This document shows, piece after piece, positions 2,013-36,948 of a DNA stretch of 64,000 nt. The stretch is from positions 248,001 to 312,000 of the forward strand of contig JAAOMT010000040.1 in NCBI GenBank assembly GCA_016748015.1, in the 5' to 3' direction. The stretch comes from Geosiphon pyriformis uo1. Lineage: Eukaryota; Fungi; Glomeromycota. The notes under the pieces are model-generated. The model was not told where the DNA came from. It did not search any database and was given only the letters and a program-made list of their open reading frames with translations. Each line of letters begins with the position of its first letter. The first letter of the stretch is position 1. The translations under genes were made by a program, and so were the position numbers.

Positions 2013-2022
2013 GGGTTTGGAA

Positions 2023-2819: not shown

Positions 2820-3684
2820 TGTTACTCATAAAAATATAAGAAATGTATTAGTATAATTATTAGCCAATCAAAAGTAAGTATAGTAAATATGGAATTCCAG
2901 GATTCCTTTCAGGAATTGCAGGATTCCAGAAATTTCAGAATTCCCAATGAGAAATTGCAGGATTCCAGAATTGCAGGATTCCTCTCAAAGGAATTGCAGG
3001 ATTCCAGGAATTTCAGGATTTCTGTTGTGAAGAATCGAGGAATTGAGGAATCTCAATTATATATATATAGCAGTAGTGTTAGAAACAGAAAAGAGAGAAT
3101 CAATACCACAGAATTCTTAGCCTAGAAATGCAATCATCAAATAAATAATTATTTTATATCTTCATCCACCTCTCTACTATCAACTCTTCATGTTGATAGT
3201 AATTGATACTTGATCATGCTAGAACAATAGCTCTTAATCATGGCTATTGACAGGATACTAATCTGCAAATTGCCTTGGCTTATTTCTTTGCTTTCTTTAT
3301 TTTCTTTTCTTTCTTTTTCTTTATTTTATTTTGATTTGTTGTTATATACTAATTGATAAAAAATTAAGCGCTGAGTTATTAACGTCAAGAATAGCCTGGT
3401 AAAAGACCCAGAAATACAGATAGGATTTTATATATTATCGGATAGCTTACCAGAAGGGCATGACTGCCAGACTAAATCCGGCCACCACACTGAGAAAGAA
3501 ATTGGGAAAACTCTTGGAAAATATATCTACTATTGACACTATTGAATCTCTGTCTATTATACAAAGGACTCAACCAAAACCTTCAGATACAGTATCTTCA
3601 GAACAGCCTCAATGGAAGTAGCTTTTAAGCACCAAGTTATGGGTTTGTTATTTAATTCAACAGCACAAATAATCACCTGTAACA
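2820..3684 (+). repeat. Element B 5' LTR
   Basis: TGTTACTC...CTGTAACA, collinear with 12422-13286; U3 GAATTGCAGGATTCC repeats, TATA-like run near 3058, U-rich tract 3280-3345. Confidence 0.97.
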
Positions 3685-3686
3685 TT

Positions 3687-3703
3687 TGGTGCTCCCTGTG
3701 AGG
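3687..3703 (+). promoter_or_regulatory. Primer binding site of B
   Basis: TGGTGCTCCCTGTGAGG, 2 nt after the LTR; complementary to a tRNA ending ...GAGCA-CCA (Ile-UAU or elongator-Met-like; identity inferred). Confidence 0.85.
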
Positions 3704-3746
3704 TATAATCCTACAGAGAACCAGCACTGACAACACCAAACCAAAA

Positions 3747-6700: not shown

Positions 6701-9700
6701 TGAGAATGGGAAGAAGACAAAGAAAATAAAGGGAAAAGAAAAGAAAAAGAGACCACCCAAACCACCACCACTTATAACATCCACATTATACCACAACAAT
6801 CTACCTATTGTCGACCTAAGCTTATATGCGTCGATTGTGGTAAAAAATTGTCATCAATGGGCGCATGCTGTGGTGACGATGAGGAATACCACACTGCAAC
6901 AAAATTCTACTGTCGTCCATGCTTATTTGAATGCTTTGGATGACCAAAGAGGCAAGAAAAATGAAATAACCAATCTTGTTTTGCTTGTGAGGAGACTCTG
7001 CTAGATGAAAGGATGTGGAATGACATCCCAGGATGTGGAGAAACATGTGACGTATTGTGTCAATACACAATTCTAATAAGTGACTAAGTAAGGAAAAGAA
7101 CCCCAATAGAAGCAGCCTGGAGAAGAGCTGTGCAGCGACTGGACAGTTGTCCATATGATGATGATGAAATTTGGCAAATAGCACTTGCAAAAATCGAAGG
7201 GGCAATGCCAAAAGAGATAAAAATGATCAAAGACAACCCCCCAGAATCTTTAAAGCTTGACTGAGATGCAGAACCCATCATAAACCTCCTGAATCTGGAA
7301 CAATTCTATGAACACTACCAAGAATTAGCACCCACAAAAGAAGAACAAGAACAACGGTTAGAGCAGTTGAACACTCGACTATGTCAACACTGCCTAATTC
7401 CCTGTAACTTCTAGTATTGTGATAAATGTGACCTCATTTACAATCTACCACCATGCATGATCTACTCAATCCCTGAAGAAGAAGAACCAATCAGCAGCTG
7501 CACATCAGAATCAGAATCGCCGATCAATCATGATTCAAACTCCGATGATGATGATGATAACAACAGTTCAAGCTCCATTCAAATTGGCAATAATGATGAA
7601 AACAATTCAGACTCAGATTCAAAACCCAATATAAACTATGAACAATACATTGTACTACCAGATCTCTCCAAGAAACAAGAGTTGAAATAGTATAGTGACC
7701 ATGGGGAAGGTATTATGTCAGAACGTGCACATAACACAGATGCAGAGTTTGATCTGAGATATCCAGGAAAAGAGACCATCAAATTAGAACCACATTCATG
7801 CACCTGCATTGATCTGAAAATAGCACTAGAAATTCCAGCAACAACAATGGTTCAATTAGCATCTAGGAGTAGTTTAGCGAAAAGAGGGATCAATATAAGA
7901 GGAGGAATAATTGATGCGGAATATATAGAAAATATCATCACCATGCTACAAAATGACTCAGAAAAAGCCTATATAATAGAGCCCAACAAAAAGATAGCAC
8001 AGGCAATATTCCTGCCTCTGATTAGAGTAGCTCAGTTAGTGTCAGTGAGAAAGAGAGAGGAATTAGGAATAACAGTGAGGGAAATACAAGGATTTGGATC
8101 AATGGATAGAATAGAAGTACCAGTTAATATGGTGGAGAAAGAAATTGTTGGCCAAGGAGAAATTATCTCAACTGGTCAAGCTATTTCCATTCCACTATAT
8201 AGCCAGTACATGTTAGCAATAGAAAGGAAAAAAAAGGAGCAAGAACAGATTTTTGAAGCAGAAACAACCCTTTGTGAATCAGGAGAGATTGGGTTAATCA
8301 ATCTTCACATACCAGCCAAAAGCTATAGCAGCATAAAAATTCTCATCTACAACAACACTGGCAATATCATCAACATACCAGAAGGAACCACCATCAAATA
8401 TTTAACCACAGAAATAGAAGACCAACCACCAAATCCCATTCCAGACTTTCCACAACTTTGTGAATATGTTGACATCACATCACAAACAATCTATGGACGA
8501 GACGAATGTTATTTGCTCCAACCAGAACAATTGGAACAAATAAACATGGGAAACTTAGATTCACTCCAATGTATGCAGCTCAAAATGTTACTCAACAATT
8601 TTAATGACATCTTTGCCAGTGAAAATGAGTTTGGCCGAACTGATATTATCCAGCATCAGATTAAGACTAAAGATGCAATGCCAATCAAACAAAGAGCATA
8701 CAGAGTGCCACCAGCCAGCCACGAGATTATTTGTCAAGAGATAAACAGAATGCTTGACAATGGGCTAATTCAACTATCAATGAGTCCATGGTTGTTACCA
8801 GTGGTACTTGTTTATAAGAAAAATGGAAAAATCCGGTTTTGTGTAGACTACAGGAAACTCAATGGTATAACTCGTGGAGACAGTTATCTAACTCCACAAA
8901 TACAGGAATTATTTGATGCTTTCAGTGAGAACAAATGGTTCTCTACATTAGATTTGAACAGTGATTACTGGCAAGTAGCCATGAATTCAGCTGACAAGAA
9001 AAAGATGGCATTTACTACTAGAGAAGGGAATTTCAAATTTGAAGTAATGCTATTTGGCTTAACCAATGCCCCAGCAACTTTCCAACAGTTAATAGAAATT
9101 GTTTATACTGGCTTATTGTGAAAATCAGTAGTTGTATACTTGGACAACACCAATGTATTCTCAAAGACATTTGATGATCATCTTCATCATCTTCAACAAG
9201 TGTTTGAAAGACTAAGAAAAGCAGGACTAAAGTTAAATGTGACAAAGTGCTTCTTTGGCAAGACAGAACTCAAATTCTTGGAACACATAGTCAGCAAAGA
9301 CGGCATCAAAATAGATCCAGAGAAAATAGATATAGTAAAAAACTTTCCAGTGCTGACCAATATAACAGAACTAAAATCATTCTTGGGATTCGCCAGTTAT
9401 TATTGTCATTTTATCAAGAACTTTTCCAAGATAGTGCAGCCACTCAATCAACTGCAAAACAAAAATGCGAAATATGAATAGACAGAAAGTCAACAAGAAG
9501 CTTTTGATATTCTGAGGAAAAAGCTTATCCAAGCTCCAGTACTAATCTATCCAGATTACAGCAAACCATTCATCATCACCACCGATGCATCAGGCCAAGC
9601 ATTGGGAGCAGTATTATCTCAGAGAGGACCAAATGGCAGAGAACATCTAGTAGCATATGCCAGCAGAGGTTTAACACCAGCCAAAAAGAACTATAGAACA

Positions 9701-9940
9701 CCAGAACAAGAACACTTAGCAATATACTGGGCCGTCATAAAATGGAAAAAATACTTGAGCCAGAAGTTTGAAGTATACACAGATCACAAGGGATTAACAT
9801 CACTCCAAAAACAAGAATTTAGAGATAGAAGACAGTTAAGATGGAAAATGGCACTCACACTATACAATTATATCATATATTACAAAAAGGGAAAAGATAA
9901 CAGAAATGCTAACAGTTTATTGTGAATAAGACAAATCTAA
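3747..9940 (+). pseudogene. Element B Gag-protease-Cys-rich-dUTPase-RT-RNase H polyprotein
   Basis: CHYCGNQGHIQIDC knuckle, LILDSGSAGS protease, dUTPase motifs, FCVDYRKLN, YLDN (YLDD), TDASG, YTDHKG. Many Trp/Gln/Arg codons mutated to stops, one frameshift near 6615, terminal TAA 9938-9940. Confidence 0.92.
7715..8105 (+). other. Trimeric-type dUTPase domain in the B polyprotein (also A ~14330-14720, C ~22045-22440, D ~30445-30835)
   Basis: All five dUTPase motifs recognisable: AEFDL (AGFDL), ASRSSLA, GIIDAEY, IAQAIF, GFGS (RGTFGFGST in D). Confidence 0.92.
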
Positions 9941-10006
9941 GAACATTTCAACCCAAAAATATAATAAAAACCAGAACAATACCAATGGAAAAATACAACA
10001 AAAAAA

Positions 10007-11724
10007 ATGAACATACAAAAATATCAACAATTGCAACATTATCTAAACACTCAACAGTTCAAGGAGAATTTATCTCATACAGAATAAAGGAGTATCAAAC
10101 AACAATCAAAATATTTTATCACTCACCAAAATATACTTTATCAAAAAAATAGAAGGGATCCAGATCAACCAACCAGAGTAATTACGAAGCCAGAAAAAGA
10201 GACAATATTATTCAATATGCACTCAAATCCAACAGCAGGACATTTTCACAAAGAAGCAACCATAGAAAGAACTAGAAAAAGATATTATTGGCCATCAATG
10301 TACCCAGACATCATTCAATATGTTCAAAATTGTAACACTTGTCAGCGAAGAGGAGGAACAAGACCCAGTAAACCATTAAGACCAATCAAAGTGGAACAAC
10401 TATTTGACCGTATGGGAATTGATTTAGTGGGACCATTAACAATCACCAGCAGAGGAAACAGATACATAGCAGTAACTATGGACTATCTCACTAAATGGCC
10501 AGAGGCGAAAGCAATTCAAAGAGCAGATGCAAAATCCATTGCCGAATTTGTTCATTAGGATTTGATTTGTCAACATGGATGTCCAAAAAAATTATTATCA
10601 GACCAAGGAACTCATTTTGTGAACAGAACATTAACAGAATTGAGCCAAAGATTCGGAATCAAGAGACCATTATCATCACCATACCATCCACAAACCAACG
10701 GATTAGTAAAAAAATTCAACAGAACATTGTGTAAAGCAATAGCCAAGCTCAGCCAAAAAAACCAGAATGATTGGGATTTGTTCATACCATCAGTACTATT
10801 TGCTTATTGGACAACGAAACAAAATACTACACAAGCAACACCATTTGAATTAGTATATGGAAGAATAGCAATGTTACCAGTAGAGAGAGAAATTAATACA
10901 TATCCAGCTGAACCAATAACAGAGGAAAATTTTCAAGAAATATTGCTGAAAAGAACATATGACTTAATAGAAACATTGGAAAACAAACGAAGAAGAGCAG
11001 CTGATAATATCCAAAAGTCACAAGAAACACAGAAAGAAAGACACAATAATCAACTACCAGACAAACCAGTTGAATTCAAGATCGGANNNNNNNNNNNNNN
11101 NNNNNNTGGGATTTGTTCATACCATCAGTACTATTTGCTTATTGGACAACGAAACAAAATACTACACAAGCAACACCATTTGAATTAGTATATGGAAGAA
11201 TAGCAATGTTACCAGTAGAGAGAGAAATTAATACATATCCAGCTGAACCAATAACAGAGGAAAATTTTCAAGAAATATTGCTGAAAAGAACATATGACTT
11301 AATAGAAACATTGGAAAACAAACGAAGAAGAGCAGCTGATAATATCCAAAAGTCACAAGAAACACAGAAAGAAAGACACAATAATCAACTACCAGACAAA
11401 CCAGTTGAATTCAAGATCGGAGACAAAGTATTACTACATCGTACCAAAGCTGAAAAACAATAAAGTGGAAAATTTGACCCCAAATGAGATGGACCATTTC
11501 ACATAGAAGAAATTCTAGGAAATGGAGCTTACAAATTAAGATTGGATAACAAAATTTTAACCAAAGCAGCACATAGAAATCAACTGAAACCATATCACAA
11601 CGTTATATTACCATCTATCAGTAATATTCCACAATTAAGAGTACAGAGAATACTAGTCCAACCAGATGAGATTCCACAAGATTGGAAACCAATCATTATT
11701 ATCGACAACAACACATTAAATTGA
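10007..11724 (+). pseudogene. Element B integrase, separate ORF (about 315 bp duplicated around the N gap)
   Basis: ATG 10007 is in frame with MHSNPTAGHF..CNTC (HHCC), GIDLVGP, LSDQGTHF, NGLVKKFN, GPFHIEEILGNGAYKL. Confidence 0.92.
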
Positions 11725-11748
11725 TCCATCAAAAGAATATATAAAGAC

Positions 11749-12408
11749 ATGGTAAACATGACAAGAAATATCAGAAAAATAGAAATTACAGACAATATTC
11801 ACTCACTAGCACAACAACTCTTTCAATTAATCTAACACCAAGAAATGGAGATTACAATCAATCAACAAACCATTCAATATCAAGATACTAGAAAGACATT
11901 TCAACTCAGAACATGAAAGAAAACTGAAAATACTGTAAACAAAATCATGGCAAAAGTAAAATTAGTAATAAAAGAATCGACAAAAGAGTCACTATATCAA
12001 GAGTTGACTAAAAAAACTTGGAATTGGTAGATACAACAATTTCCACAAAACTATTGTTATTTTTACTTGGAACAACACGTAAATATCCAGAATCTATATA
12101 TGGATAAAACAAAGTGATTATTCAACCAAAGAATACTACAACAATTAGAACATTTTGTGGGAAAGAACAACTTATCCACACAAGCCCGAGCCATATACCA
12201 AATACATACAGCCTTTCAAGATAAACCAGAAATATTGCTCAACAGAGCAATGGATCTGGTTACCAGTAATCAATTGGGAAAAATTACCAATGCTCAATTT
12301 GAAGAATTACAGACCCAAATAACACAAGTAATTCTCGAAAACAAAATCCAGGAAATACTTTAAGAGGGGGAATTACATGAGTTAGATTTCGACAGAGCTC
12401 AATATTAA
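11749..12408 (+). pseudogene. Element B ORF3, about 219 aa, unknown function
   Basis: ATG 11749; FPQNYCYFYL..NIQNLY..FVGKNNL..IYQIHTAF..DFDRAQY*; homologous to D ORF3. Confidence 0.82.
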
Positions 12409-12421
12409 AAGGAGGGAATAA
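12407..12421 (+). promoter_or_regulatory. Polypurine tract of B
   Basis: AAAAGGAGGGAATAA immediately before the 3' LTR. Confidence 0.85.
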
Positions 12422-13286
12422 TGTTACTCATAGAAATATAAAAAATGTATTAGCATAATTATTAGCCAATCAGAAGTAAGCATAGTAAATGTGGAATTTT
12501 AGGATTCCTCTCAGGAATTGCAGGATTCCAGAAATTTCAGGATTCCCAATGAGGAATTACAGGATTCCAGAATTCCAGGATTCCTCTCAAAGGAATTGCA
12601 GAATTCCAGGAATTTCAGGATTCCTGTCATAAAGAATCGAGGAATTGAGAAATCTCAATTATATATATATAGCAGTAATATTAGAAACAGAAAAGAGAGA
12701 ATTGATACCACAGAATTCTTAGCCTAGAAACGCAATCATCAAATAAATAATTATTTTATATCTCCATCCACCTCCTCACTATTAACCCTTCATGTTGATA
12801 GTAATTGATACTTGATCATGCTAGAACAATAGCTCTTGATCATGGCTATTGACAGGATACTAATTTGCAAATTGCCTTGGCTTATTTCTTTGCTTTCTTT
12901 ATTTTCTTTTCTTTCTTTTTCTTTATTTTATTTTGATTTGTTGTTATATACTAATTGATAAAAAATTAAGTGCTGAGTTATTAACGTCAAGAATAGCCTG
13001 GTAAAAGACCCAGAAATATGAGTAGGATTTTATATATTATCAGATAGCTTACCAAAAAGGCACAACTGCCAGACTAAATCTGGCCACCACACTGAGAAAG
13101 AAATTGGGAAAACTCTTGAAAAATATATCTACTATCGACACTATTGAATCTCTGTTCATTATACAAAAGACTCAACCAAAATCTTCAGATACAGTATCTT
13201 CAGAACAGCCTCAATAGAAGTAGTTTTTGAGTACCAAGTTATGGATTTGTTATTTAATTCAACAGCAGAAATAATCACTTATAACA
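12422..13286 (+). repeat. Element B 3' LTR
   Basis: Same length as the 5' LTR; differences are almost all A/G or C/T. Confidence 0.97.
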
Positions 13287-16200
13287 TCATCTAGGTAGAC
13301 TACTACTGATTTCCAAAGGATTCCTTTGTATACTACATCCATTAAGCGTTGAAATATGGCAGAAGCATTACAAAGTCCAAAAGGCATTACATTAAACTCG
13401 AAGTTTTTGTCTCGAGTGGTAAATGCTGTTTTTCCTTTGTCTTTGGGGTCTATTTCAACTTGCCAGTAACCACTTGCTAAATCTAATGACAAGAATCATT
13501 TCTTTTTCCCTAGATTGTCCAGAAATTCCTGGATGAGGGAGTGGAATAACTATCTCCTCATATGATGCTATTTAGTTTTCGATAATCTACGCAGAATCAC
13601 ACTTTTCTGTTTTTCTTGGTGACCAAGACTATTAGCGAGGACCAAGGGCTTAATAATTCTTTAATTAGGCTGTTATCAAGCATCTGTTGCACTTCTTGCT
13701 TAATTAAGTTATCACCAGATGGGGGTATATGGTAAGCTCATTGCTTAATTGGTCAAGTGTCTCTTGTATCAATCTGATGCTTCATAATGTCGGTGCGTCT
13801 AAACTCATTTTCACTGGCAAAAACATCAGCATACTGATTTAGAAGAACTTTGAGTTGCATTTGTTGCAGGGTACTTAAATTTCCTAAATTCAATTTATTG
13901 ATTTCTTCTGGTGTGAACAAGTAACTTTCTTTTGGCAAATTCTATACTTGTAAGGTAATATTACAGAATAAGAATAATTGTGCGAAATCTGGAATGGACT
14001 GGGGTTTTTCAGAATTCTGACTATCTGTGGATATGGAACTGACGAGAGTCCCTTCGGGAATTTTAATGGCATCTTCTGTTAGGTTGTGGATGGAGATTTT
14101 GAAGTGTTTATGGACTTTGGCCAGTAGGTATAGATTAGCAATATTGGCTAGGGAACAGATTTTGGGACTGGCTTCGAATAATAGGGCTTGATCTTGGATC
14201 TTTTGATTCACCTTGAGGATGTATTATCGGTATGGAGGAATGGAGATGACGGTGTCGGTGTGGATAAATTCTACCTGGTTACTGTCTTCCTCCGTGAAAT
14301 TAACTGGTACGTTTTCTCTTCCACTTGATCCAAACCCATTGATTCCTCAGACAGTGAGGCCTAACTTTTCTCGGGTTGTTATCAGGATTAATTGGGGTAT
14401 TTTGACTAGGGATAGAAAGATAGCTTGGGCAATCTTTTCTTGTAATTCTATTTTGTAGGGTCTGTTCGAATTGTTCTATAGCATCACAATGATGTTTCCC
14501 ATGTAACTGGCATCAATAATTCCTACTTTTATGTTGATTTCTTTCTTGGCTAGACTAGATTGAGAGACAACTTGTACCATTGTACTAACAGAAATTTCTA
14601 ACGCTATCTTAAGATCTATTTTTACAAGGGAATATGGGGCTATAATGATGAGTGATTGTCCAGAGTATTGTAGATTGAAACCAGTATCAGTGTCATGTGC
14701 TCTTTCGGAGCAGATTCCTTCCTTATTGTCACTGTACCATTTTAGCTCTAGTTTTTTGGATAGGTTGGGATATGCAAGATACTGTTCTGTTTTGGTATCT
14801 TCAATTGGATCTTGAAACAACATGTTCTCGGTGATCAATACCTCTTCTTCGGGTTTAGGTAGTTCAGTGATTAGAAACAGTATTCTTGGAGGTGGATTGA
14901 ACATGAGATCACATTCATCCCAGTACTGGAAATGACAGGGAATCAAACAGTGATCACATAGTTTGGTATTCAAATCGGCCAACCTTTGCTCCTGTTCCTC
15001 ACGAGTTGGGGCCAATTCCTAATATCAGTTCTGAAATGCATCTGGGTCATCTGTAAAAAAATCATCCTCAAGGTAGTTGGGTCCAGTATATTCAGACATT
15101 CAAGAGTTGTCCTTAATTTCTCGTATTTCTTCGGGCGTGGTGCCTTTGGTCTTGGCACTTGCCATTCTCCAGATTTCATGGTCATTGTGTGGATAACCAT
15201 CTAGCCTGTTGAGTGCTCGTTTCTAAGCATCCTCAATGGGGGTTTCCTTTCGTACCCAATTATTAATTAATATGGTGTATTGACAAGCCTCGTCACATGT
15301 TCCTCCTCTGCCAGGCACATCATTCCAGAGTCCTTTATCTGACAGGATTTCGTCACATGCAAGGCATGGCATGTGGTCCCACTTGCCTTGTTGTTTTGGT
15401 CGTCCAAATCTTTCCAGTAAACAAGACCTGCAATAGTATTTGGTGGTGGTGGGCTATTCTTCGTTGTCTCTGATACATGTGCCCATAGTGGATAGTTTTT
15501 TTCCACAATCAACACATATTAGTTTTGGGGGTTGGTAAAATAAGTTTCTTTGGTCCGAGGTTACATATCCTAATGATGACAATTGGGGTTCTTCTTCGGC
15601 TCTGCCTTTTTTTTTTCTTCCCAGGTTGGTGGTGGAGGTAGTTTAGTTTGATAATCATCTGTTCATAAAACCTAATAGGTCTCGATGGTTGGTGACATTG
15701 ATGTGTCTTTGAATTCAATAAGGGGTTCCTTAGTACGTTGGTTTTTAAAGTGTTCACACATAGCTGGGACTTGGGCATGCTGTCCGTTGAACATAAGTTT
15801 AAGTTCTTAGGTGTTCCAGTCGAGAGTAGCATTGGCTTTTAACAACCAGTTGTTTCCTACTAAAGCTTAATATTGAGTAGCTTTCATAACGAGTACTTTG
15901 GTAGGGATTTGGATTCCATTAATCTCGAAGAGGAAGTTGTCAATTTCTTCTATCAGGGTTTTTGTGTTCTCATCTGCTGTAATGATCTGGGTGGTAGCGA
16001 CACAGTCTACTCAGCAACCTAGTTGGTCCATGAGCTGCTTCATGATTATGCTACTAGCTGATCTGCTATCCAGGATTAATTTAATGTCTATTCCTCCAAC
16101 TCTGGCATCAGTGTATAAGGCCATTATTGGTTTATCCTGATTGATGGCTGCTCCACTAAAAAGGCTATGTGTGTTCAAATTATCGATGTCAAAAAAAAAT

Positions 16201-22400: not shown

Positions 22401-25400
22401 TTACAACAAAAAGAATAAAAGAATTCAGATTAATGGGTAAAATAGATATACCAGTTAATATAACAAAAGAAGAAACAATTGATAAAGAAGAAATTATTTT
22501 TATTTATTAATTAATTTCTATCCCAGTATATAACTAGTATATATTAGTTATAAAAAAAAAATAAAGGATCAACTACAAATTTTTGAAGCAAAAACAAACA
22601 TTTGTAAATCAGGAGAAATTGGTATTACCAATTTCTATATACCAGCCAAAAACAATAGACACATCAAAATTTTAATATACAATACAATTGAAGATTCCAT
22701 AGAAATACCAAGTGGAACCACTATTGAATACTTAAGTACTAAAGTTGAACATTAAGTACTCATCACTATTTCAGATTTTCTACAACTTTATAAATATGTG
22801 AATATCACATTACAAACAATCTATGGACAAAAAAAGTGTTATTTGTTACAATCAAAACAGTTAAAGCAAATAAACTTGAGAAATTTAAACTCACTTCAAT
22901 ATATACAACTTAAAATGCTACTTAACAACTTTACTAACATTTTTGCCAATAAAAATGAATTTGGCAAAACTGATATTATCTAACACTAGATTAAAATTAA
23001 AAATATGATGTTAATTAAACAAAAAGCATACAGAGTATTACTAGCCAGCCATAAAATCATTTAACAAGAAATTAATAGAATGTTCAATAATAGATTAATT
23101 CAACTATCAATGAATCTATGATTATTATTAATAGTACTTGTTTGAAAAAAAAATGGAAAGATCTGCTTTTGTGTGAATTACCAAAAGCTTAACAACATTA
23201 TTCATGAAAACAGCTATCTAACTTTACAGATTTAGAAGTTATTTAATGCTTTTGAAAAAAAAAATGAGTTTTAACATTAGATTTAAATAGTGGTTACTAA
23301 CAAGTAATCATGAATTCAACTGACAAGAAAAAGACAGCATTTACAAACAGAAAAGAGAATTTCAAATTTGATATTATGTCTTTTGGCTTAACTAATGCTC
23401 CAGCTATCTTTCAATGGCTTATGAAAATTGTATACACCAGATTATTATAATAATTAGTAGTAGTCTACTTGGACAACACCAATATGTTCTTCAAAATATT
23501 TAATAACTATTTTTACTATTTCTAACAAGTATTTAAAAAATTAAGAAGAGCTAAATTGAAATTAAATACAACCAAATGTTTCTTTGGCAAAACTGAATTC
23601 AAGTTTTTGGAACATATTATAAGCAAAAATAGCATTAAAATATATTCAAACAAAATTGAAATAGTTAAAAACTTTTCAGTATCAACAAACTTGATGGAAT
23701 TAAAAGCATTTTTGGAATTTGTTAGATATTATTACTGCTTTATCCAAAACTTTTCCAAACTGGCTCAATTACTTTACCAGTTTCAACCAAAAAAAATTAA
23801 ATATAAATGAACTAAAACACAACAAAAAGCTTTTGACATCTTAAGAAAAAAGCTTATTCAAGCCTCAGTACTGATTTATTCAGATTATAACAAGCTATTC
23901 ATTATTATCACTAATGTATCTGGTTAAACATTGAGAGCTGTATTGTTATAAAAAAAAGTAAATAAATGAAAAAATTCAGTGGCATATACCAGCTGAAGTT
24001 TAAGTCCAGTCAAGAAGAACTATAAAACTTTAGCATTAGAACACTTAGCTATTTATTGGACTATTATCAAATAAAAAAATATTTAAGTCAAAAATTTGAT
24101 ATGTACACTAATCACAAAGAATTAACATCAATTCAGAAGCAAAAATTTGAAAATAATTGTTATACAAGATAAAAAATAGAATTATTACTATTTAATTATA
24201 CAGTATATTATAAAAAAAGAAAAAAAACAGAAATGCCAATGGTTTATTACAGATAAAACAAATCTAAACATTTTAATTCAAAAATATAACAAAAAATGAA
24301 CACACAAAAATATTAACAACTCCAACATTATATCAATACTCAACAGTTTAAGAAAAAATTATCTCAAAAAAAACAAAACAAAATAAAACAACAAGCAAAA
24401 TATTTTATCACTTACCAAAATATATTATATCAAAAAAGCAGAAAAAATTCAGACCAGTTACTCAAAGTAATTACAAAACTAAAAAAAAAAACAAGCAACA
24501 TTATTTGAACTTGTCTATGATAGAACAACAATATTACCAGTTAAGATAGATATTAATACATATTTAACAAAACCAATAACAGAAGCCAACTTTCAAAAAA
24601 CATTGCTGAAAAGAACATATAACTTAATAGAAATATTAGAAAACAAAAAGCAAACAGCAGCTAATAACATATAAAAGTCACAAAAAAAACAAAAAAAATG
24701 ACATAATAACCAATTACCAAATAAACCAGTTGAATTTAAGATTGAAGACAAAGTATTCTTATATTATACCAAAGCAAAAAAACAATAGAGTGAAAAATTT
24801 GATCCCAAATAAGATGAACTATTTTATATTGAAAAAATTCTAAAAAATAGAACTTATAAATTAAGATAGGACAACAAAATTTTAGCTAAAACAGCACATA
24901 GAAATTAATTAAAATCATATCACAATATAGTATTATTATTCACTAGTAATATTTTATAATTAGGAATACAACAAATACTAATTCAACCAGATAAAATTTT
25001 ACAAGATCTAGAACCAATTATAATTATTAATACCAACATATTAAATTGATATAACAGAAAGATATATAAAGAACTAACACAATATACATAACAAAAACAA
25101 CAATAAAAAGATAGAAATCCCAAATCATATTTATATAATAACTTAACAATTATTCTAAGCTATAAATTAACAACAATTAAACATAAAAATTATTATTAAT
25201 TATCAAACAATTTGCTATTAAAATACCAAAAGAGAAAAAAAAGCAAAAATTATTTTATATTAGTGAACATGAAACCAAATAAAACACTAGTTAGATAAAG
25301 TTATAAAAAAAATAAAGAACATTTTTAGAAAAATACCAATAACAATTCTAACAAAAAAGTTAATAAAAAAAACTGGAAACTATAAATAGAACAACTTCCA

Positions 25401-25567: not shown

Positions 25568-26433
25568 TGTTACGGTTTAAGAAGTTAGCAAAAAGAATCA
25601 TAAAAATAATACAAACTATTCAATCATAATATAGCACAGTAATAATCTTAGAAAGGTAATGATTAACATAGTAGCAAACACCATCTCGCGATAGTGGCAA
25701 GCACCAGTTCACAATAGCAGCCAACACCAACTGGTGATAGCAGCAAGCACCAGGTTAAAATATCAAAAAGAAAGTATTTTCTTGTAGAACTACAAACATG
25801 TATATATACATTAGTTTTAATATTGGGAAAGAATCAATCAAGTAATAAAAATCATAACTTATCAAGCAATAGATCCAATTTTATCCAACAAACTCCACTT
25901 TAAATCATACTTTCAAATTAAATATCCCAAGAAACCTTTAAAATCAAAAAGAAATGAAAAAGAATATTTAAAACTGAACTATCACAACCCAAAGTATTAA
26001 GAAACTTACTTGTATTATTTATTGAATGAAACTATCATTCATCAACTGAATCCCTTGGAAGAATAATCCTTGATCAAGATTATTCACGTTGTTACTAATT
26101 GATAAAAGCTTTATTGTGAGAATTAGAAAAGCACTAAAGACCATTAACATTCTGTGTTTCTAGATTAGAGAAACACATCAAACAATTGCAAGGATAGCCT
26201 CAGAGAAGACCCCAGACAGTGGATAGATTTCAGTTCAGCCTCTGAGAAAGAGTACATAAACACACACAACAATCAAGAATTAAAGAATAACTTACATCGC
26301 AACAGTAAAAAGAAAGCCTTCAGTGTAACAGTGACATTATCACACAAATAGAATTGAGGAACTCACGAAAGACTGATTGCAATTAAAGCAGGATATCAAC
26401 AATTAAATATAACAAGAAAACCATCCCGTAACA
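25568..26433 (+). repeat. Element D 5' LTR (866 bp)
   Basis: Matches 35469-35628 and 36609-36948; four 23-bp repeats ATAGYRGCMARCACCA at ~25668-25755. Confidence 0.95.
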
Positions 26434-26435
26434 TT

Positions 26436-26451
26436 TGGTGAACCCTACGAG
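26436..26451 (+). promoter_or_regulatory. Primer binding site of D
   Basis: TGGTGAACCCTACGAG after the LTR; complement ...GGGTTCA-CCA resembles a tRNA-Trp 3' end (inferred). Confidence 0.8.
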
Positions 26452-26515
26452 AAAAGAAAATCAAAAAGGAAATAATAATTAGCAATAATTCATTGCTAAA
26501 AAGGAAAAGACAAAA

Positions 26516-29500
26516 GTGGCGACAAAAACCCCTAATCTTACTGTTCTTGAATTCTGCCGTGCTATTTACACACAAAATCAAAGTGATCTTGGATTACCAG
26601 AAGGGTGTTGTCCAGCAGAATCTGCCCTCACTTATTATATCAACGCCAGAATAAATTATCATATAAGAAAGGAAGAAGAACCACATGACACAAAACTTGG
26701 ATTGTATAGAGAATTATCACAATACACTACAAAAGAAGTAACAGTAATAGCTGCAACTATTGTCAAAATCCATCGAAAAATTGAGCAATACACCAACGAA
26801 AATTTTCCAATATCCACAGGAAACACTAGGGAATATGCCAACAAAACCAAAGAAAATTTAGAAACTAATCAGGAAAGTAACCAGCAAAAACTAAGAACAC
26901 CAGCTCAAACGCCAAAGAAAACTGTCACTCAATCAATAAAAAAACAACGTATTTATTCACCAGAAGATAAATCATACCATTTTTCACCAGAAAATAAGAT
27001 ACAAATTCCATTAGGAGCTGCATCATCATCAACATCAACTCCACAAACGCCAAGAACTCCTAGTTATATTGATAAAATTAAACAACGTAACTGGGGAGAC
27101 ATACCAATTATAGGAGAATATTTATCACTATTCCAAAACCCTTTTTTTCAGCCAAAATTTAGAACGGGGTTTGAAAACTGTGAAGAGGAGTCTGAATCAG
27201 AATCCGAAAAAGAGACCAGTGAAAAAACAATCACAAGACCAGTTACTGGAACAAGCAGCCAGTCCAGAAACCAAGAAACTTATGATCAAGAGAAAGAACT
27301 GGATATAAGGGAAGCCACCTTTAGGAACGCTCAAGGAAATATCATCCCACCTCCTCTTAGACCAATAAACCCATCAGCAGAAAACGGCAACGAAATGACC
27401 ACACCATACATTGCAAGACTAACAGATTTCTCAGGAGAGGAAGAAGAAACGGACATGCACACATGGCTCAGAGAAACACAAAAAGCCATCCAGGCAAATA
27501 ACTGGAATGACCAAAGAGCAATTCAAACATTACCTTTTTTCCTGAAAGGCACAGCCAACTCGTGGTATCAAAGTCTGGAAACAAAACCCACGAGCTTTGT
27601 CAAATTTAAAAATACACTCCTGGAGTATTTTAGTGATCCAAATGCCGTAATCCAACTATAGAACGAATTCAATACTATTAAGCAAAATACTGGTGAAACT
27701 GTCACCCAATACCTTGCTTGATTCAATCGAATTTGCCGTCAGATTGAAGCGATTGAACAAGGATACTACACTGATTCTCAGGTTTTAAATCAGTTTATTA
27801 GAGGATTAAAAAGCAGCATTTTAGGAAGAGTATGCCCTGCCCACCCTAATTCCTTACCAGAAGCCATTACGCTCGCCAGAGCCCTTAAATCGGCTAAGAA
27901 AGAAGCTAACCATAGTCAAATGGTTAACATGGTAATGGAGGAAAATAAGACAGAAACATTAGAGAAAAGAGTAACGCGATTAGGGGAGGAACTCTCTAAG
28001 AAAATAGAAAGTTACCTCATCCCGGATCTGAGAAAAAATACATACCAACCACCCCAAAGACGCAGCCAGGAAGTCAGTGACAGTCGAAATAATCGCCCAT
28101 CGTGCCAGGAATTCAGAACAGAAACACGCGCCTGCCATTTTTGCAAACGCGTAGGACATTTGATTAGTCAATGTCGAACGCGAATGATGCAGGAAGCACG
28201 CAAAAATAATTACTATGCGCCACCCCAAATGCCCAGAAACCAGTACACGCCAATACCACGCCAATATCCCACCACGTATCAAAATCAAGGAACTTACCAG
28301 CAACAGCCCATGATAGCCAACCCGAATTGGCGTCCCGAGGCCCGAAATCAGCCCATGTGGAACCAGAACGCGTTGGTCCAGAGGAATCCAAACCACGCCG
28401 GAACCAATCAGCAAACCAATCCAAACTACCAAAATTATCAACAAACTTACCTTAATATACTGGAAAACCTGATCATTGGAAACAATGACAGTAGAAACAT
28501 AAACAGAACCAAAAATTCCTCCAAATTGAGCCAGACAATACCACCAGCAGTTGCCACCGAAGATAGCAGCCTCGCAGCTATTTTTCCTTTTGAATTAGAG
28601 GAAAACGAGGCTATGTTCAGTGGAGCAGCATTGGACGAAAAATGCCCAATCACTGCTATGTATATGGAAGCCACTGTAAACAATACTCCAATCAAACTTA
28701 TCTTAGACAGCGGATCCACTGGAAGCATCGTAACGCTTCAACTAGNNNNNNNNNNNNNNNNNNNNGAACGCGCCAACAAAACCAAAGAAAATTTAGAAAC
28801 TAATCAGGAAAGTAACCAGCAAAAACTAGAAACACCAGCTCAAACGCCAAAGAAAACTGTCACTCAATCAATAAAAAAACAACGTATTTATTCACCAGAA
28901 GATAAATCATACCATTTTTCACCAGAAAATAAGATACAAATTCCATTAGGAGCTGCATTATTATCAACATCAACTCCACAAACGCCAAGAACTCCTAGTT
29001 ATATTAATAAAATTAAACAACGTAACTGGGGAGACATACCAATTACAGGAGGATATTCATCACTATTCCAAAACCCTCTTTTTCAGCCAAAATTTAGAAC
29101 GGGGTTTGAAAACCATGAAGAGGAGTCTGAATCAGAATCCGAAAAAGAGACCAGTGAAAAAACAATCACAAGACCAGTCACTGGAACAAGCAGCCAGTCC
29201 AGAAACCAAGAAACTCGTGATCAAGAGGAAAAACCGGATATAAGGGAAGCCACCTTTAGGAACACTCAAGGAAATATCATCCCACCTCCTCTTAGACCAA
29301 TAAACCCATCAGCAGAAAACGGCAACGAAATGACCACACCATACATTGCAAGACTAACAGATTTCTCAGGAGAGGAAGAAGAAACAGACATGCACACATG
29401 GCTCAGAAAAGCACAAAAAGCCATCCAGGCAAATAACTGGAATGACCAAAGAGCAATTCAAACATTACCTTTCTTCCTGAAAGGCACAGCTGACTCGTAG

Positions 29501-32500
29501 TATCAAAGCCTGGAAACAAAACCCACGAGCTTCGCCGAATTTAAAAATGCACTCCTGGAGTATTTTAGCGACCCAAACGCCGTAATCCAACTACAGAACG
29601 AATTCAATACTATCAAGCAAAATACTGGTGAAACTGTCACCCAATACCTTGCTTGATTCAATCGAATTTGCCGTCAGATTGAAGCGATTGAACAAGGATA
29701 CTACACTGATCCTCAGGTTTTAAATCAGTTTATTAGAGGATTAAAAAGCANNNNNNNNNNNNNNNNNNNNCCGTTGTAACAAAGAAAAATACGGTTACCC
29801 AGAAAGACACGGAAAATGGGACGAGGAACCGTGCCTCGCTTGTGGAGAACTGTTACCAAGAGGGTGTGACTGGAACGACTTACCAGGCAGAGGAGGAACG
29901 TGTGACACAACTTGCCAATACACGATCCTCATCTGTGACTGGGTAAGAGGAGGAATGCTGTTCGAAGCAGTGTTCAACAGAGCGTTAAAAAGACTACAGC
30001 ACTACCCACACGACGAGGACGAGTTGTACAACACCGCACAAGCCAAAGTAAGAGGAGGAACCGCTGAAGAAATACGACGTTGGAAAGAGTCAGCCGAAAT
30101 AGCCGACGAAGTCGCCAGCTACAATATGTTCAACCCAGTGGACGAATTCCAGAACTACTACCAACAACTATGCCTCACTCGACAAGAGCAAAAACAATAC
30201 CTCGCTCAAATCAACACTTACCTCTGCGAAAACTGTCTTATCCCATGCCAAAGTCAGTGCTGTGAAGAGTGTCAAGATGAAAGGGACTTAGAAAGAAAAA
30301 TGGAAATTGAGAATCAGCAGTCTCAAAATCAATCAATAAATCAACAAGACTCACTTGACAGTCCCGAGTCAGAAAAATTTGTAGCCTATACCGACCTAGA
30401 ACAGGTGACCGACATCTGATACTTCAACAACGGGCACTTAGGAATAATACCCGAAAGAGCCCATCCAACCGACACCAGATTCAATCTACGTTATCCAGAA
30501 GACCAATCCACAACATTACCACCCAGAAGCATCACCAAAATCGACCTAAAATTAGCGGTTGAAATTCCGCCAGGAATAATGGTTCAAATGGCGTCGCGAT
30601 CAAGCCTCGCGAAAAAAGGAATAAGTGTTCAAGGAGGAGTAATTGACTCCAGATACACTGGAAATTTGATGGTTTTGCTACAGAACAATTCAGAAAAGCC
30701 TTATACCATTGAATCTAAGGAAAAGATTGCACAAGCAATTTTCCTACCATTGGTAAAAATTGGGAAATTCGTGCCAGTGGAAAATCGTGAGGAATTGTCA
30801 CAAACAACAAGAGGAACTTTTGGTTTCGGATCGACAAAAAAAGGAATTGAAGCGAATTTCGCTGAAACAATAGAGGAAAAAGGCGAAGTAATTAAAATTG
30901 AGCGGTCCATCATGCTCCTACCATATGGAAAATCAGAAATAAGAATAAAAAGGACAATTAAAGAAAAAGACCTAATATTTGAGCCCTATCCAGAAACTTG
31001 CCAACAGTTTCTCATAAGACTTACTAACCTTTTTATTCCAGCTGATAAAGCTCAATGGATAAAAATTCCTATCGCAAACATCACAGAAAAACCCATCTAC
31101 ATTCCGGAAGATACCATCATTGGATACCTCGGAACAGAGCTAGAAAACGCGTCAACACTACAAGAAATTCTAAATTTCCCAGAAATCGCCCTCTACTGTG
31201 AACTCACTTCAATAAATTGGCAACAACCAGTAGAATGCTATCAATTTACGCCAGAAGAATTGGCCAAATTAAACATTGGAACAATGGATCCCGACCAACA
31301 GCGACAATTAAAAGCATTAATTTTAAAATACTCTGATATATTTTCAAGAAATAGCGAATTTGGAAGAACCAACTTGGTTCAACACCAANNNNNNNNNNNN
31401 NNNNNNNNTGAATTAGAGGAAAACGAGGCTATGTTCAGTGGAGCAGCATTGGACGAAAAATGCCCAATCACTGCTATGTATATGGAAGCCACTGTAAACA
31501 ATACTCCAATCAAACTTATCTTAGACAGCGGATCCACTGGAAGCATCGTAACGCTTCAACTAGTAAACCAACTGGGTTTCAAAGTTGATTGTGCCGCGAT
31601 GTCCCAAATCATAACAGCCGATGGAAGTACAAAGCTGCCTTATGGCGAAATCGACTCATTCCCTTTCGAAATTAATGGCATAGTAATACCTACAAAAGTA
31701 TTAGTAATGGACGCTACACAATATCAAGCGTTAGTAGGGAATAACTGGCTAACAAAAGCCAATGCCACCCTAGACTGGACCACCCAAGAGCTTCTGATCA
31801 ATTATAATGGCCACTAGGCCAAAATTCCAGCCACCTGTGGCCACTTCCAAAAACCCAGCGCCAACNNNNNNNNNNNNNNNNNNNNACGCCAGAAGAATTG
31901 GCCAAATTAAACATTGGAACAATGGATCCCGACCAACAGCGACAATTAAAAGCATTAATTTTAAAATACTCTGATATATTTTCAAGAAATAGCGAATTTG
32001 GAAGAACCAACTTGGTTCAACACCAAATCTCCACTGGAAACGCCAGACCTGAAAAACAATGCGCTTACTGTGTTCCACCAATGGAGCATAATTTTATCAA
32101 AGAAGAAGTCCAAAGCATGTTGGAAAAAGGAATAATACAACCATCAATGAGCTCATGGTCCTCACCAGTTGTTTTAGTAAGGAAAAAGAACGGAAAAATT
32201 AGATTTTGCGTCGACTATCGCAAACTAAACAGCAAAACAACCAAAAACTCATACCCAATACCGTTAATTGACGAAATTTTCGACGTTTTTGGAGGAGCAA
32301 AATGGTTTTCTACACTGGACTTGACCAGTGGGTATTGGCAAGTGGAAATGGACCCAAAGGACAGGCATAAAACAGCATTCACAACACAAAATGGCAATTA
32401 TGAGTTCAATGTAATGCCATTTGGATTAACAAACGCTCCCACAACATTCCAAAGACTAATGGACGTAATTTACTCCGGAATCCTGTGGCAATCCGTTGTT

Positions 32501-33293
32501 GTCTACTTGGATGATACAAATGTTTTCTCGTCAAAATTCACGGATCATCTCCAACATTTACAACAAGTTTTTGAGAGATTGAGACACGCTGAACTTAAAC
32601 TAAATCTAGAAAAATGTTTCTTTGGGAAAAATGAGCTAGCATTTTTAGGACACGTAATTGGAAAAGATGGAATAAAACCAGATTCATCAAAAATAGACAA
32701 AGTGAAAAATTTTCCAGTACCTCGAAACGTCTCAGAAGTTAGAAGCTTTTTAGGACTCGCATCTTACTACCGCCGCTTTGTAGAAAACTTTTCAAACATC
32801 GCTACTATCTAAAAATGTGAAGTTTGAATGGACTGAAGCACAACAAAAAGCTTTTGAGTACCTTAGACAAAAGCTCATTGAATCACCAATAATGATCTAT
32901 CCGAATTTTAACAAGAAATTCATTTTGGCCACAGATGCCTCTAGAACTGGACTTGGAGCCATTCTGTCACAAAAAGATGATAATGGAAGAGAACGTGTAA
33001 TCGCTTATGCCAGCAGAAGTCTCAATACGGCAGAACAAAACTATGCAGCACATGAACTTGAATGCTTAGCAGTAGTCTGGAGTTGTGTTCACTTTGACAC
33101 ATATTTACGGTACCAATCCTTTGAGATTACGACAGATCATAGAGGTCTGGTCTGGTTAAATAACAAGAAAGCGCTAAAAGGAAAATACGCCAGATAGTCA
33201 TAAACGTTAGCACCATACGATTATATTATCAAATACAAAAAAGGTACCAAAAATGCTAATGCCGACTGTTTGTCAAGAATGAGACACACATAA
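26516..33293 (+). pseudogene. Element D Gag-protease-Cys-rich-dUTPase-RT-RNase H polyprotein (pieces duplicated or out of order at gaps)
   Basis: CHFCKRVGHLISQC, LILDSGSTGS, RSSLAKKG/GVIDSRYTG/RGTFGFGST, VVYLDDTNVF, TDASRTG, TDHRG, NADCLSRMRHT then TAA. Overlapping contigs join gag through RT in one frame. Confidence 0.92.
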
Positions 33294-33322
33294 AAATCAC
33301 CAACCCACCCGCCACAACAACA

Positions 33323-34702
33323 ATGAACAACCACCTTTACAAAAACCTCAGCCAATACTTGGAAACACTACAAATAGACAAAAAAATGCCAGTAAAAGAG
33401 CTAATTAAGCTCCAAAAATTAGCAAAACACTATTTCATCCAAAATCACATACTTTATTACCGGAATCAACAAAATCCAGATAATCCATTAAGAGTTATAA
33501 CCACGAATGAAAAAGAAACTATCTTATTTAACATGCACTCAGATATTCATTCAGACCACTTTGGAAAAACAGCAATCATCTAATGTGCAACTAGCCATTA
33601 CTATTGGCCAAAAATGAGCTCAGACATAATCCAATACATAAGAAATTGTGACCCATGCTAACGAAGAGGAGGAGCAAAAACAACGGAATTATTAAGACCA
33701 ATAAAAGTTGGACAGCCATTTGACAGAATCGGAATTGATTTAGTTGGACCCTTACCAATAACAACAAGAAACAACCATTATATTGCAGTAGCCATGGACT
33801 ATCTCACCAAATGGCCAGAAGCTAGAGCTATTAAAACAGCTGATGCTATTTCCGTAGCTCAATTCGTACATGAAGACTTAATTTGCTGACATGGATGTCC
33901 ACAAGAATTGCTATCAGATCAAGACACACACTTCGTAAACAGCACCTTAAAAGAACTTAGCCAAAAATTTGGAATCAAGCGACCACTGTCATCACCATAC
34001 CACCCTCAAACAAATGGATTAGTTGAAAGATTTAATCGCACATTATGTGAATCACTGGCAAAAATTAGTAACGAACATGAAAAAGAATGGGATTTGTTCA
34101 TACCAGCAGTACTACTAGCATATAGAACAATAAAACAAAATACTACACAATTCACACCATTCAAACTAGTTTATGGAAGAAAAGCCACATTACCCATTGA
34201 ACTTATTATTCCAACTTATCCGAGTGACACTATCATGGAAGCAACATTCCAGGAAACACTACTTAGAAGAACATACGAATTAATGAGAACTTTAGAAAAC
34301 AAAAGAAGAAAAGTAGCACAAAATATTGAACAATCACAAGAACAACAAAAAGTGAGACATGATAACCAGTTACCAGATAATATAATTAGCTACAAAATTG
34401 GAGATAAAGTATTGTTGCATTGTACAAAAATGGAAAAACAGTGGAGTGGAAAATTTGATCACAAGTGGAATGGACCATTTTATATTCATGAAATACTTGG
34501 AAATGGAGCATACAAGCTAAGACTAGATGATAAAATATTAAGAAAAGCAGCACATGGTAACCGGCTGAAATTCTATTACAGTAAACCAGTAATAACAACA
34601 AAAACACCCAGAATTAGAACACAATTACCTTTAATTCTACCAGAACAAATTCCACGAGATTTAGAACCAATAGTTTTAATTGAACATTATTCGAAAAGAT
34701 AA
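33323..34702 (+). pseudogene. Element D integrase, separate ORF (460 codons, few internal stops)
   Basis: Own ATG; HHCC, IGIDLVGP, LSDQ, NGLVERFN, WNGPFYIHEILGNGAYKL; no chromodomain seen. Confidence 0.93.
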
Positions 34703-34786: not shown

Positions 34787-35455
34787 ATGATACTTATTCC
34801 AGAAAACATCAACAATATAACTCAACAATTAGTTGAAAGCTTACAACAATTAAAATCCGATCTAGAAATCACAGTTAATAGCTCCAAAATAACATACATA
34901 AAAAGAACAATAGAAAATCCAAAAACAAGAAAAGAACATAATTTCGAACCATATAATATTGCCAAATATAACAACAAATTTATTAGCAAAGTTATTGAAA
35001 AATTAGAGATAGCATTGGGCAATACATTAATAATGGAAGAAATAGAAATAAGTGAATTAACACCAGACACATTTAGCAACTTGAAAACAAAATTCCCAAT
35101 TAATTACTGTTATTATCAACTAGGAAAGCACTTGAACATACAAACATTATACTTAAAAAACTCAACTAGAGTGTTTGACAAAACAACTATCCAACTATTA
35201 GAACCTTTCATTGGAAAAACCAACACTACATTCCATTCAAAAACAGTTTACAGAATTTTCAAAGCATTTGAAAACTGTCACAAATTATTGTTGGACCCAA
35301 CCATGAACATAATAACAACCAACAGTATTGGACGACTTACCAACTCGCAATTTCAAGAATTATAACAACAAATTAATAACACAGTATTGAACCACTATAG
35401 TAACTTAGAATTTAATGAAGAAATTAACTTCGATTTCGACGGAGCTCAATCTTGA
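34787..35455 (+). pseudogene. Element D ORF3, about 222 aa with one CAA>TAA stop at 35363
   Basis: 192-aa ORF that continues in frame to DFDGAQS*, which overlaps the PPT; homologous to ORF3 of A, B and C. Confidence 0.85.
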
Positions 35456-35468
35456 AAGGAGGGGATAA

Positions 35469-36948
35469 TGTTATGGTTTAAGAAGTTAGCAAAAAAAATC
35501 ATAAAAATAATACAAACTATTCAATCATAATATAGCACAGTAATAATCTTAGAAAAGTAATGATTAACATAGTAGCAAATACCATCTCGCAATAGTGACA
35601 AGCACCAGTTCACAATAGCAGACAACACNNNNNNNNNNNNNNNNNNNNCAATCCAAACTACCAAAATTATCAACAAACTTACCTTAATATACTGGAAAAC
35701 CTGATCATTGGAAACAATGACAGTAGAAACATAAACAGAACCAAAAATTCCTCCAAATTGAGCCAGACAATACCACCAGCAGTTGCCACCGAAGATAGCA
35801 GCCTCGCAGCTATTTTTCCTTTTGAATTAGAGGAAAACGAGGCTATGTTCAGTGGAGCAGCATTGGACGAAAAATGCCCAATCACTGCTATGTATATGGA
35901 AGCCACTGTAAACAATACTCCAATCAAACTTATCTTAGACAGCGGATCCACTGGAAGCATCGTAACGCTTCAACTAGTAAACCAACTGGGTTTCAAAGTT
36001 GATTGTGCCGCGATGTCCCAAATCATAACAGCCGATGGAAGTACAAAGCTGCCTTATGGCGAAATCGACTCATTCCCTTTCGAAATTAATGGCATAGTAA
36101 TACCTACAAAAGTATTAGTAATGGACGCTACACAATATCAAGCGTTAGTAGGGAATAACTGGCTAACAAAAGCCAATGCCACCCTAGACTGGACCACCCA
36201 AGAGCTTCTGATCAATTATAATGGCCACTAGGCCAAAATTCCAGCCACCTGTGGCCACTTCCAAAAACCCAGCGCCAACCAAAGACCTACCTTCGAATTT
36301 GAGGAAAATCCAGCACTACCAGCCATTGAAACCTATTAGCTCTCTTGGGCTGATGACCAAAAAACAGGACTACCAGCCATACCAACGTGGACCAGCGAAG
36401 AAAGATCCGAATGGAACCAGGTAAGTTCACGAAGAAACCACCAGCGACGCAGACCAAAGCTAGAATGCTCGGTTTGCAAGAAAAAACTCTCGTCTATGAC
36501 TGCGTGCAGCGCACCAGACGAAGACCCAAGAAACCCCACCCACTACTATTGTAACCGTTGTAACAAAGAAAAATACGGTTACCCAGAANNNNNNNNNNNN
36601 NNNNNNNNACTAATTGATAAAAGCTTTATTGTGAGAATTAGAAAAGTGCTAAAGACCATTAACATTCTGTGTTTCTAGATTAGAGAAACACATCAGACAA
36701 TTGCAAGGATAGCCTCAGAGAAGACCCCAGACAGTGGGTAGATTTCAGTTCAGCCTCTGAGAAGGAGTACATAAACACACACAACAATCAAGAATTAAAG
36801 AATAACTTACATCGCAACAGTAAAAAGAAAGCCTTCAGTGTAACAGTGACATTATCACACAAATAGAATTGAGGAACTCACGAAAGACTGATTGCAATTA
36901 AAGCGGGATATCAGCAATTAAATATAACAAAAAAACCATCCCGTAACA
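35469..36948 (+). repeat. Element D 3' LTR, split by two gaps and a misplaced gag-protease contig (35649-36588)
   Basis: 35469-35628 and 36609-36948 match the start and end of the 5' LTR. Confidence 0.9.

Follow-up and report, generated by a model that had tools for sequence, protein, structure and literature searches.

A Ty3/gypsy-type retrotransposon lineage predicted to encode integrase as a separate gene behind RNase H

In LTR elements and retroviruses, integrase lies within Pol, an arrangement that sets its amount and gets it packaged. The window analysed here, a stretch of 64,000 nucleotides from Geosiphon pyriformis (contig JAAOMT010000040.1, positions 248,001 to 312,000), holds LTR elements in which the RNase H frame is closed by a stop codon and integrase begins behind it at an ATG of its own. 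The locus raises the question of whether this split merely reflects the decay of dead copies or belongs to the design of a lineage and, if so, how the integrase is made and delivered.

Stop and start codons in the window

Stop/start junctions are found in four elements of the window, A to D (Table 1). The positions that the initial annotation had given for the four RNase H stops and the four integrase ATGs were right, and so were the spacer lengths, which correspond to phases 1, 0, 1 and 2 in A, B, C and D. It had also placed the TAA shortly after an NADxLSR motif. The Asp of this motif provides the final carboxylate of the RNase H catalytic site. Four codons do separate the motif equivalent from the stop in each element, but the motif itself is decayed in A, B and C, where it reads NADSLLR, NANSLL* and NANGLLQ, respectively. 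In element B, an additional and earlier TGA (9923-9925) lies within the motif, and the spacer holds one ATG, out of frame. The description of four diverged elements had to be revised to three families, since B and C share about 71% identity across 2.9 kb.

The D junction is located inside one gap-free piece of the assembly, between N runs at 31866-31885 and 35629-35648. Stops inside integrase are present in all elements: those of A and D are given in Table 1, B has two in the 360 codons preceding its gap and C has one, at codon 7. As all four copies are decayed, the window by itself is unable to exclude decay.

Table 1. Features of elements A to D in the 64,000-nt window
Feature	Positions	Strand	Remarks
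A integrase ORF	645..2012	-	7 decay stops in 456 codons; next ATG 4 nt past its stop
A junction	2012..2025	-	RNase H TAA 2025-2023, 10-nt spacer, integrase ATG 2012
B whole element	2820..13287	+	LTRs 2820-3685 and 12422-13287, 93% identical
B order: gag-PR-dUTPase-RT-RH, integrase, ORF3-like frame		+	RNase H TAA 9938-9940, 66-nt spacer, integrase ATG 10007, ORF3-like frame 11749-12408
C junction	24265..24298	+	TAA 24265-24267, 28-nt spacer, ATG 24296; C is an AT-eroded relative of B
D 5' LTR	25568..26433	+	TG...CA, ACAC before it; 96-98% identity to 3' LTR pieces
D PBS-like site, TGGTG...	26436..26451	+	two bases past LTR; putative, no tRNA assigned
D gag (CCHC), protease and dUTPase pieces	27425..31865	+	order scrambled at assembly gaps, where pieces are duplicated
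D RT and RNase H	32048..33293	+	ends NADCLSR-MRHT-TAA (TAA 33291-33293); decayed: one frameshift, two stops in RNase H frame
D spacer	33294..33322	+	29 nt, A/C-rich, without ATG
D integrase ORF	33323..34702	+	own ATG (33323) with A at -3; HHCC, rve core, GPF/SH3; three decay stops in 459 codons; no chromodomain match
D ORF3, helical family	34787..35455	+	ends at PPT; profile match E 1.3e-4 (weak); one internal stop; two short out-of-frame ATGs upstream of it
D polypurine tract	35456..35468	+	
D 3' LTR	35469..36948	+	ACAC after it; interrupted at two assembly gaps and by a misplaced piece

Pfam matches among the 26 proteins scanned include a Ty3-type Gag, an aspartic protease, a dUTPase, RT and an integrase of the HHCC-rve-SH3 type. 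The chromodomain PF00385 is absent from protein P0001 and from the 120 relatives listed. Across 71 aligned integrases, Met1, H69, H76, C106, C109, D136, E232 and P380 are invariant. The dUTPase sits between protease and RT in the window elements (7691-8100, 14476-15018 and 30420-30840). In related elements, a NUDIX domain was observed in Pol (P0257, P0265, P0272, P0339), and a NUDIX-like ORF was recognized by eye after integrase in L021 (1945-2886).

In element D, a 390-codon open frame on the plus strand lies between the PBS-like site and the capsid region (26489-27661, part of it repeated at 28772-29750); it has no match in Pfam and is probably a long Gag N-terminus. Both B and D are bounded by TG...CA LTRs and contain a PBS-like site and a PPT. 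ACAC, a possible target-site duplication, flanks D on both sides and no duplication is seen at B, both elements spanning assembly gaps. Exact duplicates adjoin the 20-N gaps (10772-11421, 28417-31865 and 35649-36279); they are assembly artefacts that scramble the gag-pol order of D and put a protease piece in its 3' LTR. Two further elements on the minus strand, at about 13300-17500 and 60100-63400, break off within RT or RNase H and lack integrase. The window also contains eroded, very AT-rich element copies (10-25% GC; 19190-26000, 37000-41000 and 52000-60000), a decayed non-LTR retrotransposon with Pfam matches to endonuclease, RT and RNase H (47708-52426, plus strand) and an ORF, possibly a host gene exon, with a weak match to an MIT domain (42873-43568, plus strand, E 2.7e-5). 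Differences between sister copies are mostly C>T and G>A, like methylation-driven or RIP-like mutation.

The split layout in relatives

The probability that the split stems from decay, or from faulty assembly of dead copies, as the broken state of all four window copies and the gapped assembly might suggest, is practically negligible: in sister-copy contigs of a DNA run (X1, possibly the sample behind the window sequence; 378 contigs cover 33200-33420, and contigs drop rare variants) the D stops at 33196, 33581 and 33659 are replaced by sense codons in 99%, 94% and 100% of depth, the RNase H stop at 33291-33293 has no variant reaching 3%, the spacer has no indel, and both frames are clean in 39 of 53 relatives. 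In the same contigs, the third base of the D integrase ATG varies in 4%.

Searches for relatives gave a concordant picture at the protein level. The 120 best matches of the D integrase measure 390-453 residues in a search limited to near lengths (longer proteins were searched separately), and 119 of them begin with Met, mostly at the same place. For RT-RH, the length window was wide enough for a fused Pol; 120 matches were listed, 23 eukaryotic gene models were set aside and 88 of the other 97 show the motif. Among these 88 listed matches, 82 end within 35 residues past the motif, the short tails of some being possible contig ends, two run into an integrase, both with a chromodomain, and four run on without integrase.

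In parallel, the best 80 of 568 loci in the scanned part of a soil metagenome were analysed. The RNase H C-terminus is present in 55 of these best 80 of 568 loci and is fused to integrase in none of the 55, with the reservation that the query, derived from free-standing integrases, works against the retrieval of fused kin, and that several loci are near-duplicates. Tabulation of stop, ATG and spacer, the check proposed by the initial annotation, placed an ATG at the integrase start in 53 of the 55, at varied distances. Stop and start overlap in 20 loci (-1 to -20 nt, including three TAATG and five ATGA junctions), lie +2 to +192 nt apart in 29 and 365-943 nt apart in four, and in three of these four a long RNase H extension contains an early stop. 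The 53 loci divide 11/23/19 among the phases. With sister copies keeping the RNase H stop and no fusion among 55 relatives, the claim that integrase is free-standing by design and not through decay was borne out. As judged from sequence, the elements form a large Ty3/gypsy-type lineage in which Pol closes with RNase H, and integrase is encoded separately from a start codon of its own. The hosts are likely Glomeromycota fungi, because the named close relatives come from Rhizophagus irregularis, R. clarus and Cetraspora pellucida; the metagenome loci carry no host name. No integrase relative was found in viral contigs.

The RNase H extension measures 236-344 residues (L025:4345-5166, L039:3494-4441, L054, L069, L076 and L029). 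It combines an acidic part with a Cys/His-rich motif, C..C...NHH.H.YC..C, predicted to be probably a zinc-binding domain.

Trees of RT and integrase, built from database matches only, recover the same families, with a distance correlation of 0.45 over 32 split rows whose pairs are not independent. The RT tree is a quick one with weak deep branches (81-83), and the integrase tree was built without P0134 and P0236, which form long branches. A truly fused form lies inside the group (integrase support 96): P0124, a metagenome ORF that holds RT, RH, IN and ORF3 in one frame, with the motif intact. Fusion is also seen in P0130, P0138 and P0143, which are placed, with weak support, in the group or close to it.

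Downstream of integrase, 30 of the 37 ORFs of at least 90 residues belong to one family, ORF3. Its start lies -11 to +5 nt from the integrase stop in 6 of 30 loci and more than 1 kb away in four. In the window, the ORF3 profile matches D weakly, and A and B only marginally. The predicted model consists of eight helices (pLDDT 96.6). No Pfam family is common to more than 1 of 28 members, the Atlas gave no match and the PDB only weak sequence matches. The model has no Foldseek match at E 0.001 and reaches a best Z of 4.5, results that do not by themselves establish a new fold. The ORF3-integrase fusion in P0124 hints that the two may act together.

How integrase may be made and delivered

Since integrase is free-standing by design, separate expression and separate delivery follow, as the initial annotation had argued. 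Termination-reinitiation on the genome-length RNA is the mechanism towards which the sequences lean, if by a modest degree. Ribosomes would finish at the RNase H stop and resume translation at the integrase AUG close by, the terminating 40S subunit staying on the RNA and either finding an AUG a few bases back, at overlaps, or scanning a short ATG-poor spacer. In one sub-group, a bulged hairpin after the stop would help the restart, comparable to the structure after the ORF1 stop in SART1, and ORF3 may be reached by the same restart. More loosely, and by analogy with foamy-virus Pol, integrase made in cis might bind its own RNA or Gag and so be co-packaged.

Restart is favoured because the stop-start overlaps, the ATG-poor spacers and the structure after the stop match what is seen in CHV1 and SART1. 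UAAUG coupling was reported to work in a fungus at 2.5-4.4% (PMC2699510), and coupling in the SART1 retrotransposon to need a structure downstream of the stop (PMC10275272). The stop-start distance falls between -20 and +30 nt in 27 of 53 junctions, and ORF3 starts near the integrase stop in the six loci mentioned above. All 20 overlaps are held within 20 nt (14 of 14 after dropping six close kin), compared with 44% of off-frame runs inside integrase. The 29 spacers of up to 200 nt contain 11 ATGs, six of them in L033, where mononucleotide shuffles predict 24.9 and dinucleotide shuffles 18.8; a count as low was reached in 0 of 500 and 7 of 500 shuffles, respectively. Moreover, A is found at -3 in 30 of 48 integrase starts versus 88 of 289 internal Met codons (p 3e-5). 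The loci are related, so that none of these counts is independent.

Several observations speak against restart. Spacers exceed 30 nt in 26 of 53 junctions, a length reported to lie beyond the range of TURBS-type restart (PMC10275272), and L011 (365 nt with 7 ATGs) and L033 (192 nt with 6 ATGs) fit a scanning restart badly. No TURBS motif is held in common, 1 of the 20 overlap loci having UGGGA ahead of its stop, and the hairpin is absent from the four spacers of the window. In four loci, RT-RH itself lies behind an in-frame stop; few ribosomes would then arrive at the RNase H stop, and a restart of a few percent would yield very little integrase. P0124, a relative, is truly fused. In addition, selection against dual coding can alternatively give rise to short overlaps, and a subgenomic mRNA would be equally compatible with the scarcity of ATGs and with the start context.

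Production of integrase, and of ORF3 with it, from such a subgenomic RNA is unlikely without being far-fetched. It would be transcribed from an internal promoter in RT/RNase H or formed by splicing of the 5' leader to an acceptor before the AUG. The good start context and the ATG-poor spacers agree with it, as do the long spacers with upstream ATGs of L011 and L033; it would avoid the low yield behind a readthrough stop and has a counterpart in foamy viruses, where Pol is reported to come from a spliced RNA (PMC7828637). On the contrary, overlaps held within 20 nt are not predicted by it and most spacers are without an acceptor-like site, that of D having no AG at all. In 12 of 57 junctions, a branch point and YAG lie in the 60 nt preceding the ATG, a figure that 3 of 16 control windows equal or exceed. 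The weak CTRAY..AG signal that the initial annotation had seen over the NAD codons did not hold, no donor or acceptor position being in common. A second shared motif, starting GACCAGGAC, was noticed at L011:2774, L033:1739 and L058:405, at least some 100 nt upstream of the integrase ATG; occurring in loci with long ATG-containing spacers, it is possibly a promoter or a structure.

It is improbable that initiation occurs internally on the full-length RNA, independently of upstream termination, with the hairpin or spacer motifs recruiting a ribosome or factor. In its favour is the covarying hairpin with conserved unpaired bases just before the AUG. Positioned after the stop and ahead of the integrase AUG in 22 of the best 80 of 568 loci, this bulged hairpin of 46 nt is made of a 5-bp stem, a purine-rich bulge of 11-12 nt, a second stem of 6+2 bp from which one A bulges, and a loop of 3 nt, its end being 0-32 nt from the AUG in the nine loci measured. 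In 19 aligned copies, both partners have changed in 9 of 13 pairs, and 94.7% of cells are paired versus at most 48.6% in slid controls. In other sub-groups, AACGG repeats and another shared motif could play a similar part. Nevertheless, the hairpin is absent from 58 of the 80 loci and from the window, and overlap junctions leave no room for a spacer element. Furthermore, 46 nt is small for an IRES.

The hairpin is distributed over the clade with the RNase H extension, except for L069, and is also present in L050, which stands apart from that clade in both trees. A model of it retrieved three extra copies, each near-identical to a training copy, and a weak variant in L030, with no match elsewhere in the 80 loci and none in the window, its four spacers included. 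Rfam gave two matches on 19 loci, neither at the hairpin; the exact pattern was not found in viral contigs, and a search with a 15-base hairpin pattern was discarded as it returned only chance-level matches. The sequence AACGG occurs up to four times per spacer, often near the integrase ATG, in L003, L004, L006, L008, L013, L023, L055 and L061. Sub-groups may differ in the mechanism by which integrase is expressed.

Finally, it is highly improbable that a fused Pol-integrase is still made through a stop-removing intron, a frameshift or readthrough. Four NCBI gene models (P0122, P0123, P0125 and P0126) do join RT to integrase, but at different places, and three of the four are without NADxLSR. 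P0123 and P0125 are likely gene-predictor artefacts, as both trees join them as sisters to the split loci L020 and L006 (support 98-100). The split layout would account for mis-annotation, gene finders likely bridging the stop by invented introns in Rhizophagus and Cetraspora models. Some in-frame intron is allowed at 21 of 57 junctions, with donors up to 150 nt upstream. However, a GT-AG intron of at least 40 nt that spares NADxLSR and restores the frame is possible in only 9 of 48 junctions (nine loci having been dropped as near-duplicates or broken); five of these nine introns run through the long RNase H extension and none is in the four junctions of the window. No donor position is common to more than 4 of 57 junctions, the Gly codon able to give a donor is GGT in 4 of 57, and a conserved intron was rejected for want of a splice site shared across junctions. 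Two joints in a single contig of run X2 (depth 9.7, ends TC..AA and CT..AC) were likewise set aside, being not splice-like and in DNA. Slippery heptamers are present in 6 of 48 junctions, and the invariance of Met1 also argues against fusion. With all three phases represented among relatives and none of 55 fused, the absence of a fixed frameshift or readthrough, as first proposed, is confirmed.

Signs of recoding were seen elsewhere in these elements. In one sub-group, TGA CTA, a known readthrough context, follows an acidic stretch and is found in frame between protease and RT (L010, 2882-2888; L011, 870-876; L057, 3290-3296; L074, 1955-1961), where it likely serves stop-codon readthrough, unusually after protease and not after Gag. 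Where the lineage appears to recode in this way, it does so in a constant phase and context, which the integrase junction does not have. In other sub-groups, the Gag stop follows TTTAAAC-like heptamers, with pol in another frame (L014:1975, L020:3147, L061:2919, L028:2084), which suggests a -1 frameshift.

Beyond the favoured restart at the integrase AUG, a broader proposal is tentative and rather doubtful as a whole. The fungal LTR clade could be a eukaryotic operon in which Gag-Pol, integrase and ORF3 would be produced by serial restart, the 46-nt RNA structure promoting restart, or else internal initiation, downstream of a long ORF; integrase would reach the cDNA without a polyprotein, with ORF3 as adaptor.

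Comparison with known systems

No prior description of the split layout was found in the literature searched; Repbase, Dfam, subscription journals and preprint supplements lay outside the search and may hold such consensus elements. It is not described in the accessible parts of PMC5911963, PMC2871265 and bioRxiv 2021.03.30.436303. New here are the covarying 46-nt hairpin before the integrase AUG and the conserved helical ORF3 that is sometimes coupled to the integrase stop. A successful lineage without the link between Pol and integrase is a natural test of separate integrase delivery. In the same way, dozens of natural stop-start junctions, together with a compact RNA structure, offer material for the study of restart after long ORFs in fungi.

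The elements resemble Ty3/gypsy by their TG...CA LTRs, PBS-like site, PPT, Ty3-type capsid, PR-RT-RH-IN order and HHCC-DDE-GPF integrase. In canonical members such as Ty3, Tj1 and fungal gypsy elements, pol is reported as one polyprotein, AP-RT-RH-INT (PMC3248453), whereas here integrase lies outside pol with its own Met, a conserved ORF3 follows and no match to a chromodomain is obtained. On sequence grounds they are a variant lineage of Ty3/gypsy and not a canonical member, since integrase is not the end of Pol (none of 55 fused). A chromovirus was rejected, as no PF00385 chromodomain is found at the integrase C-terminus in P0001 or among the 120 relatives listed.

UAAUG and AUGA overlaps like those described here are reported for CHV1 ORF A/B, HvV190S and SART1 (PMC10275272, PMC2699510). 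Each of those systems has one fixed junction, whereas distances here range from -20 to about +190 nt within one lineage. Foamy viruses (Spumaretrovirinae) are comparable in that an enzyme is made apart from Gag and packaged via a Gag-genome-Pol complex (PMC7828637). Nevertheless, their whole Pol, integrase included, is reported to come from a spliced RNA (PMC7828637), while here only integrase is separate and the junctions yielded no conserved splice site.

Badnaviruses and other Caulimoviridae share a polyprotein ending in RNase H and downstream ORFs on one RNA. The resemblance to the badnavirus layout put forward by the initial annotation proved superficial: LTRs, PBS, PPT and an intact DDE integrase are present here, many relatives have gag and pol in separate frames and no Pfam match to a movement protein was obtained among the 26 proteins scanned.

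Ginger1 likewise has a free-standing gypsy-type integrase ORF with HHCC and GPY/F, TG...CA ends and a 4-bp duplication (PMC6839031). Here, by contrast, integrase lies between direct LTRs behind RT-RH, and the integrase and RT trees agree at the level of families. Capture of Ginger1, which has terminal inverted repeats and no RT, was discarded on account of the direct LTRs and of the RNase H upstream in 55 of 80 loci, the other 25 not all being long enough. The split layout is a plausible half-way state towards Ginger-type transposons that carry integrase only.
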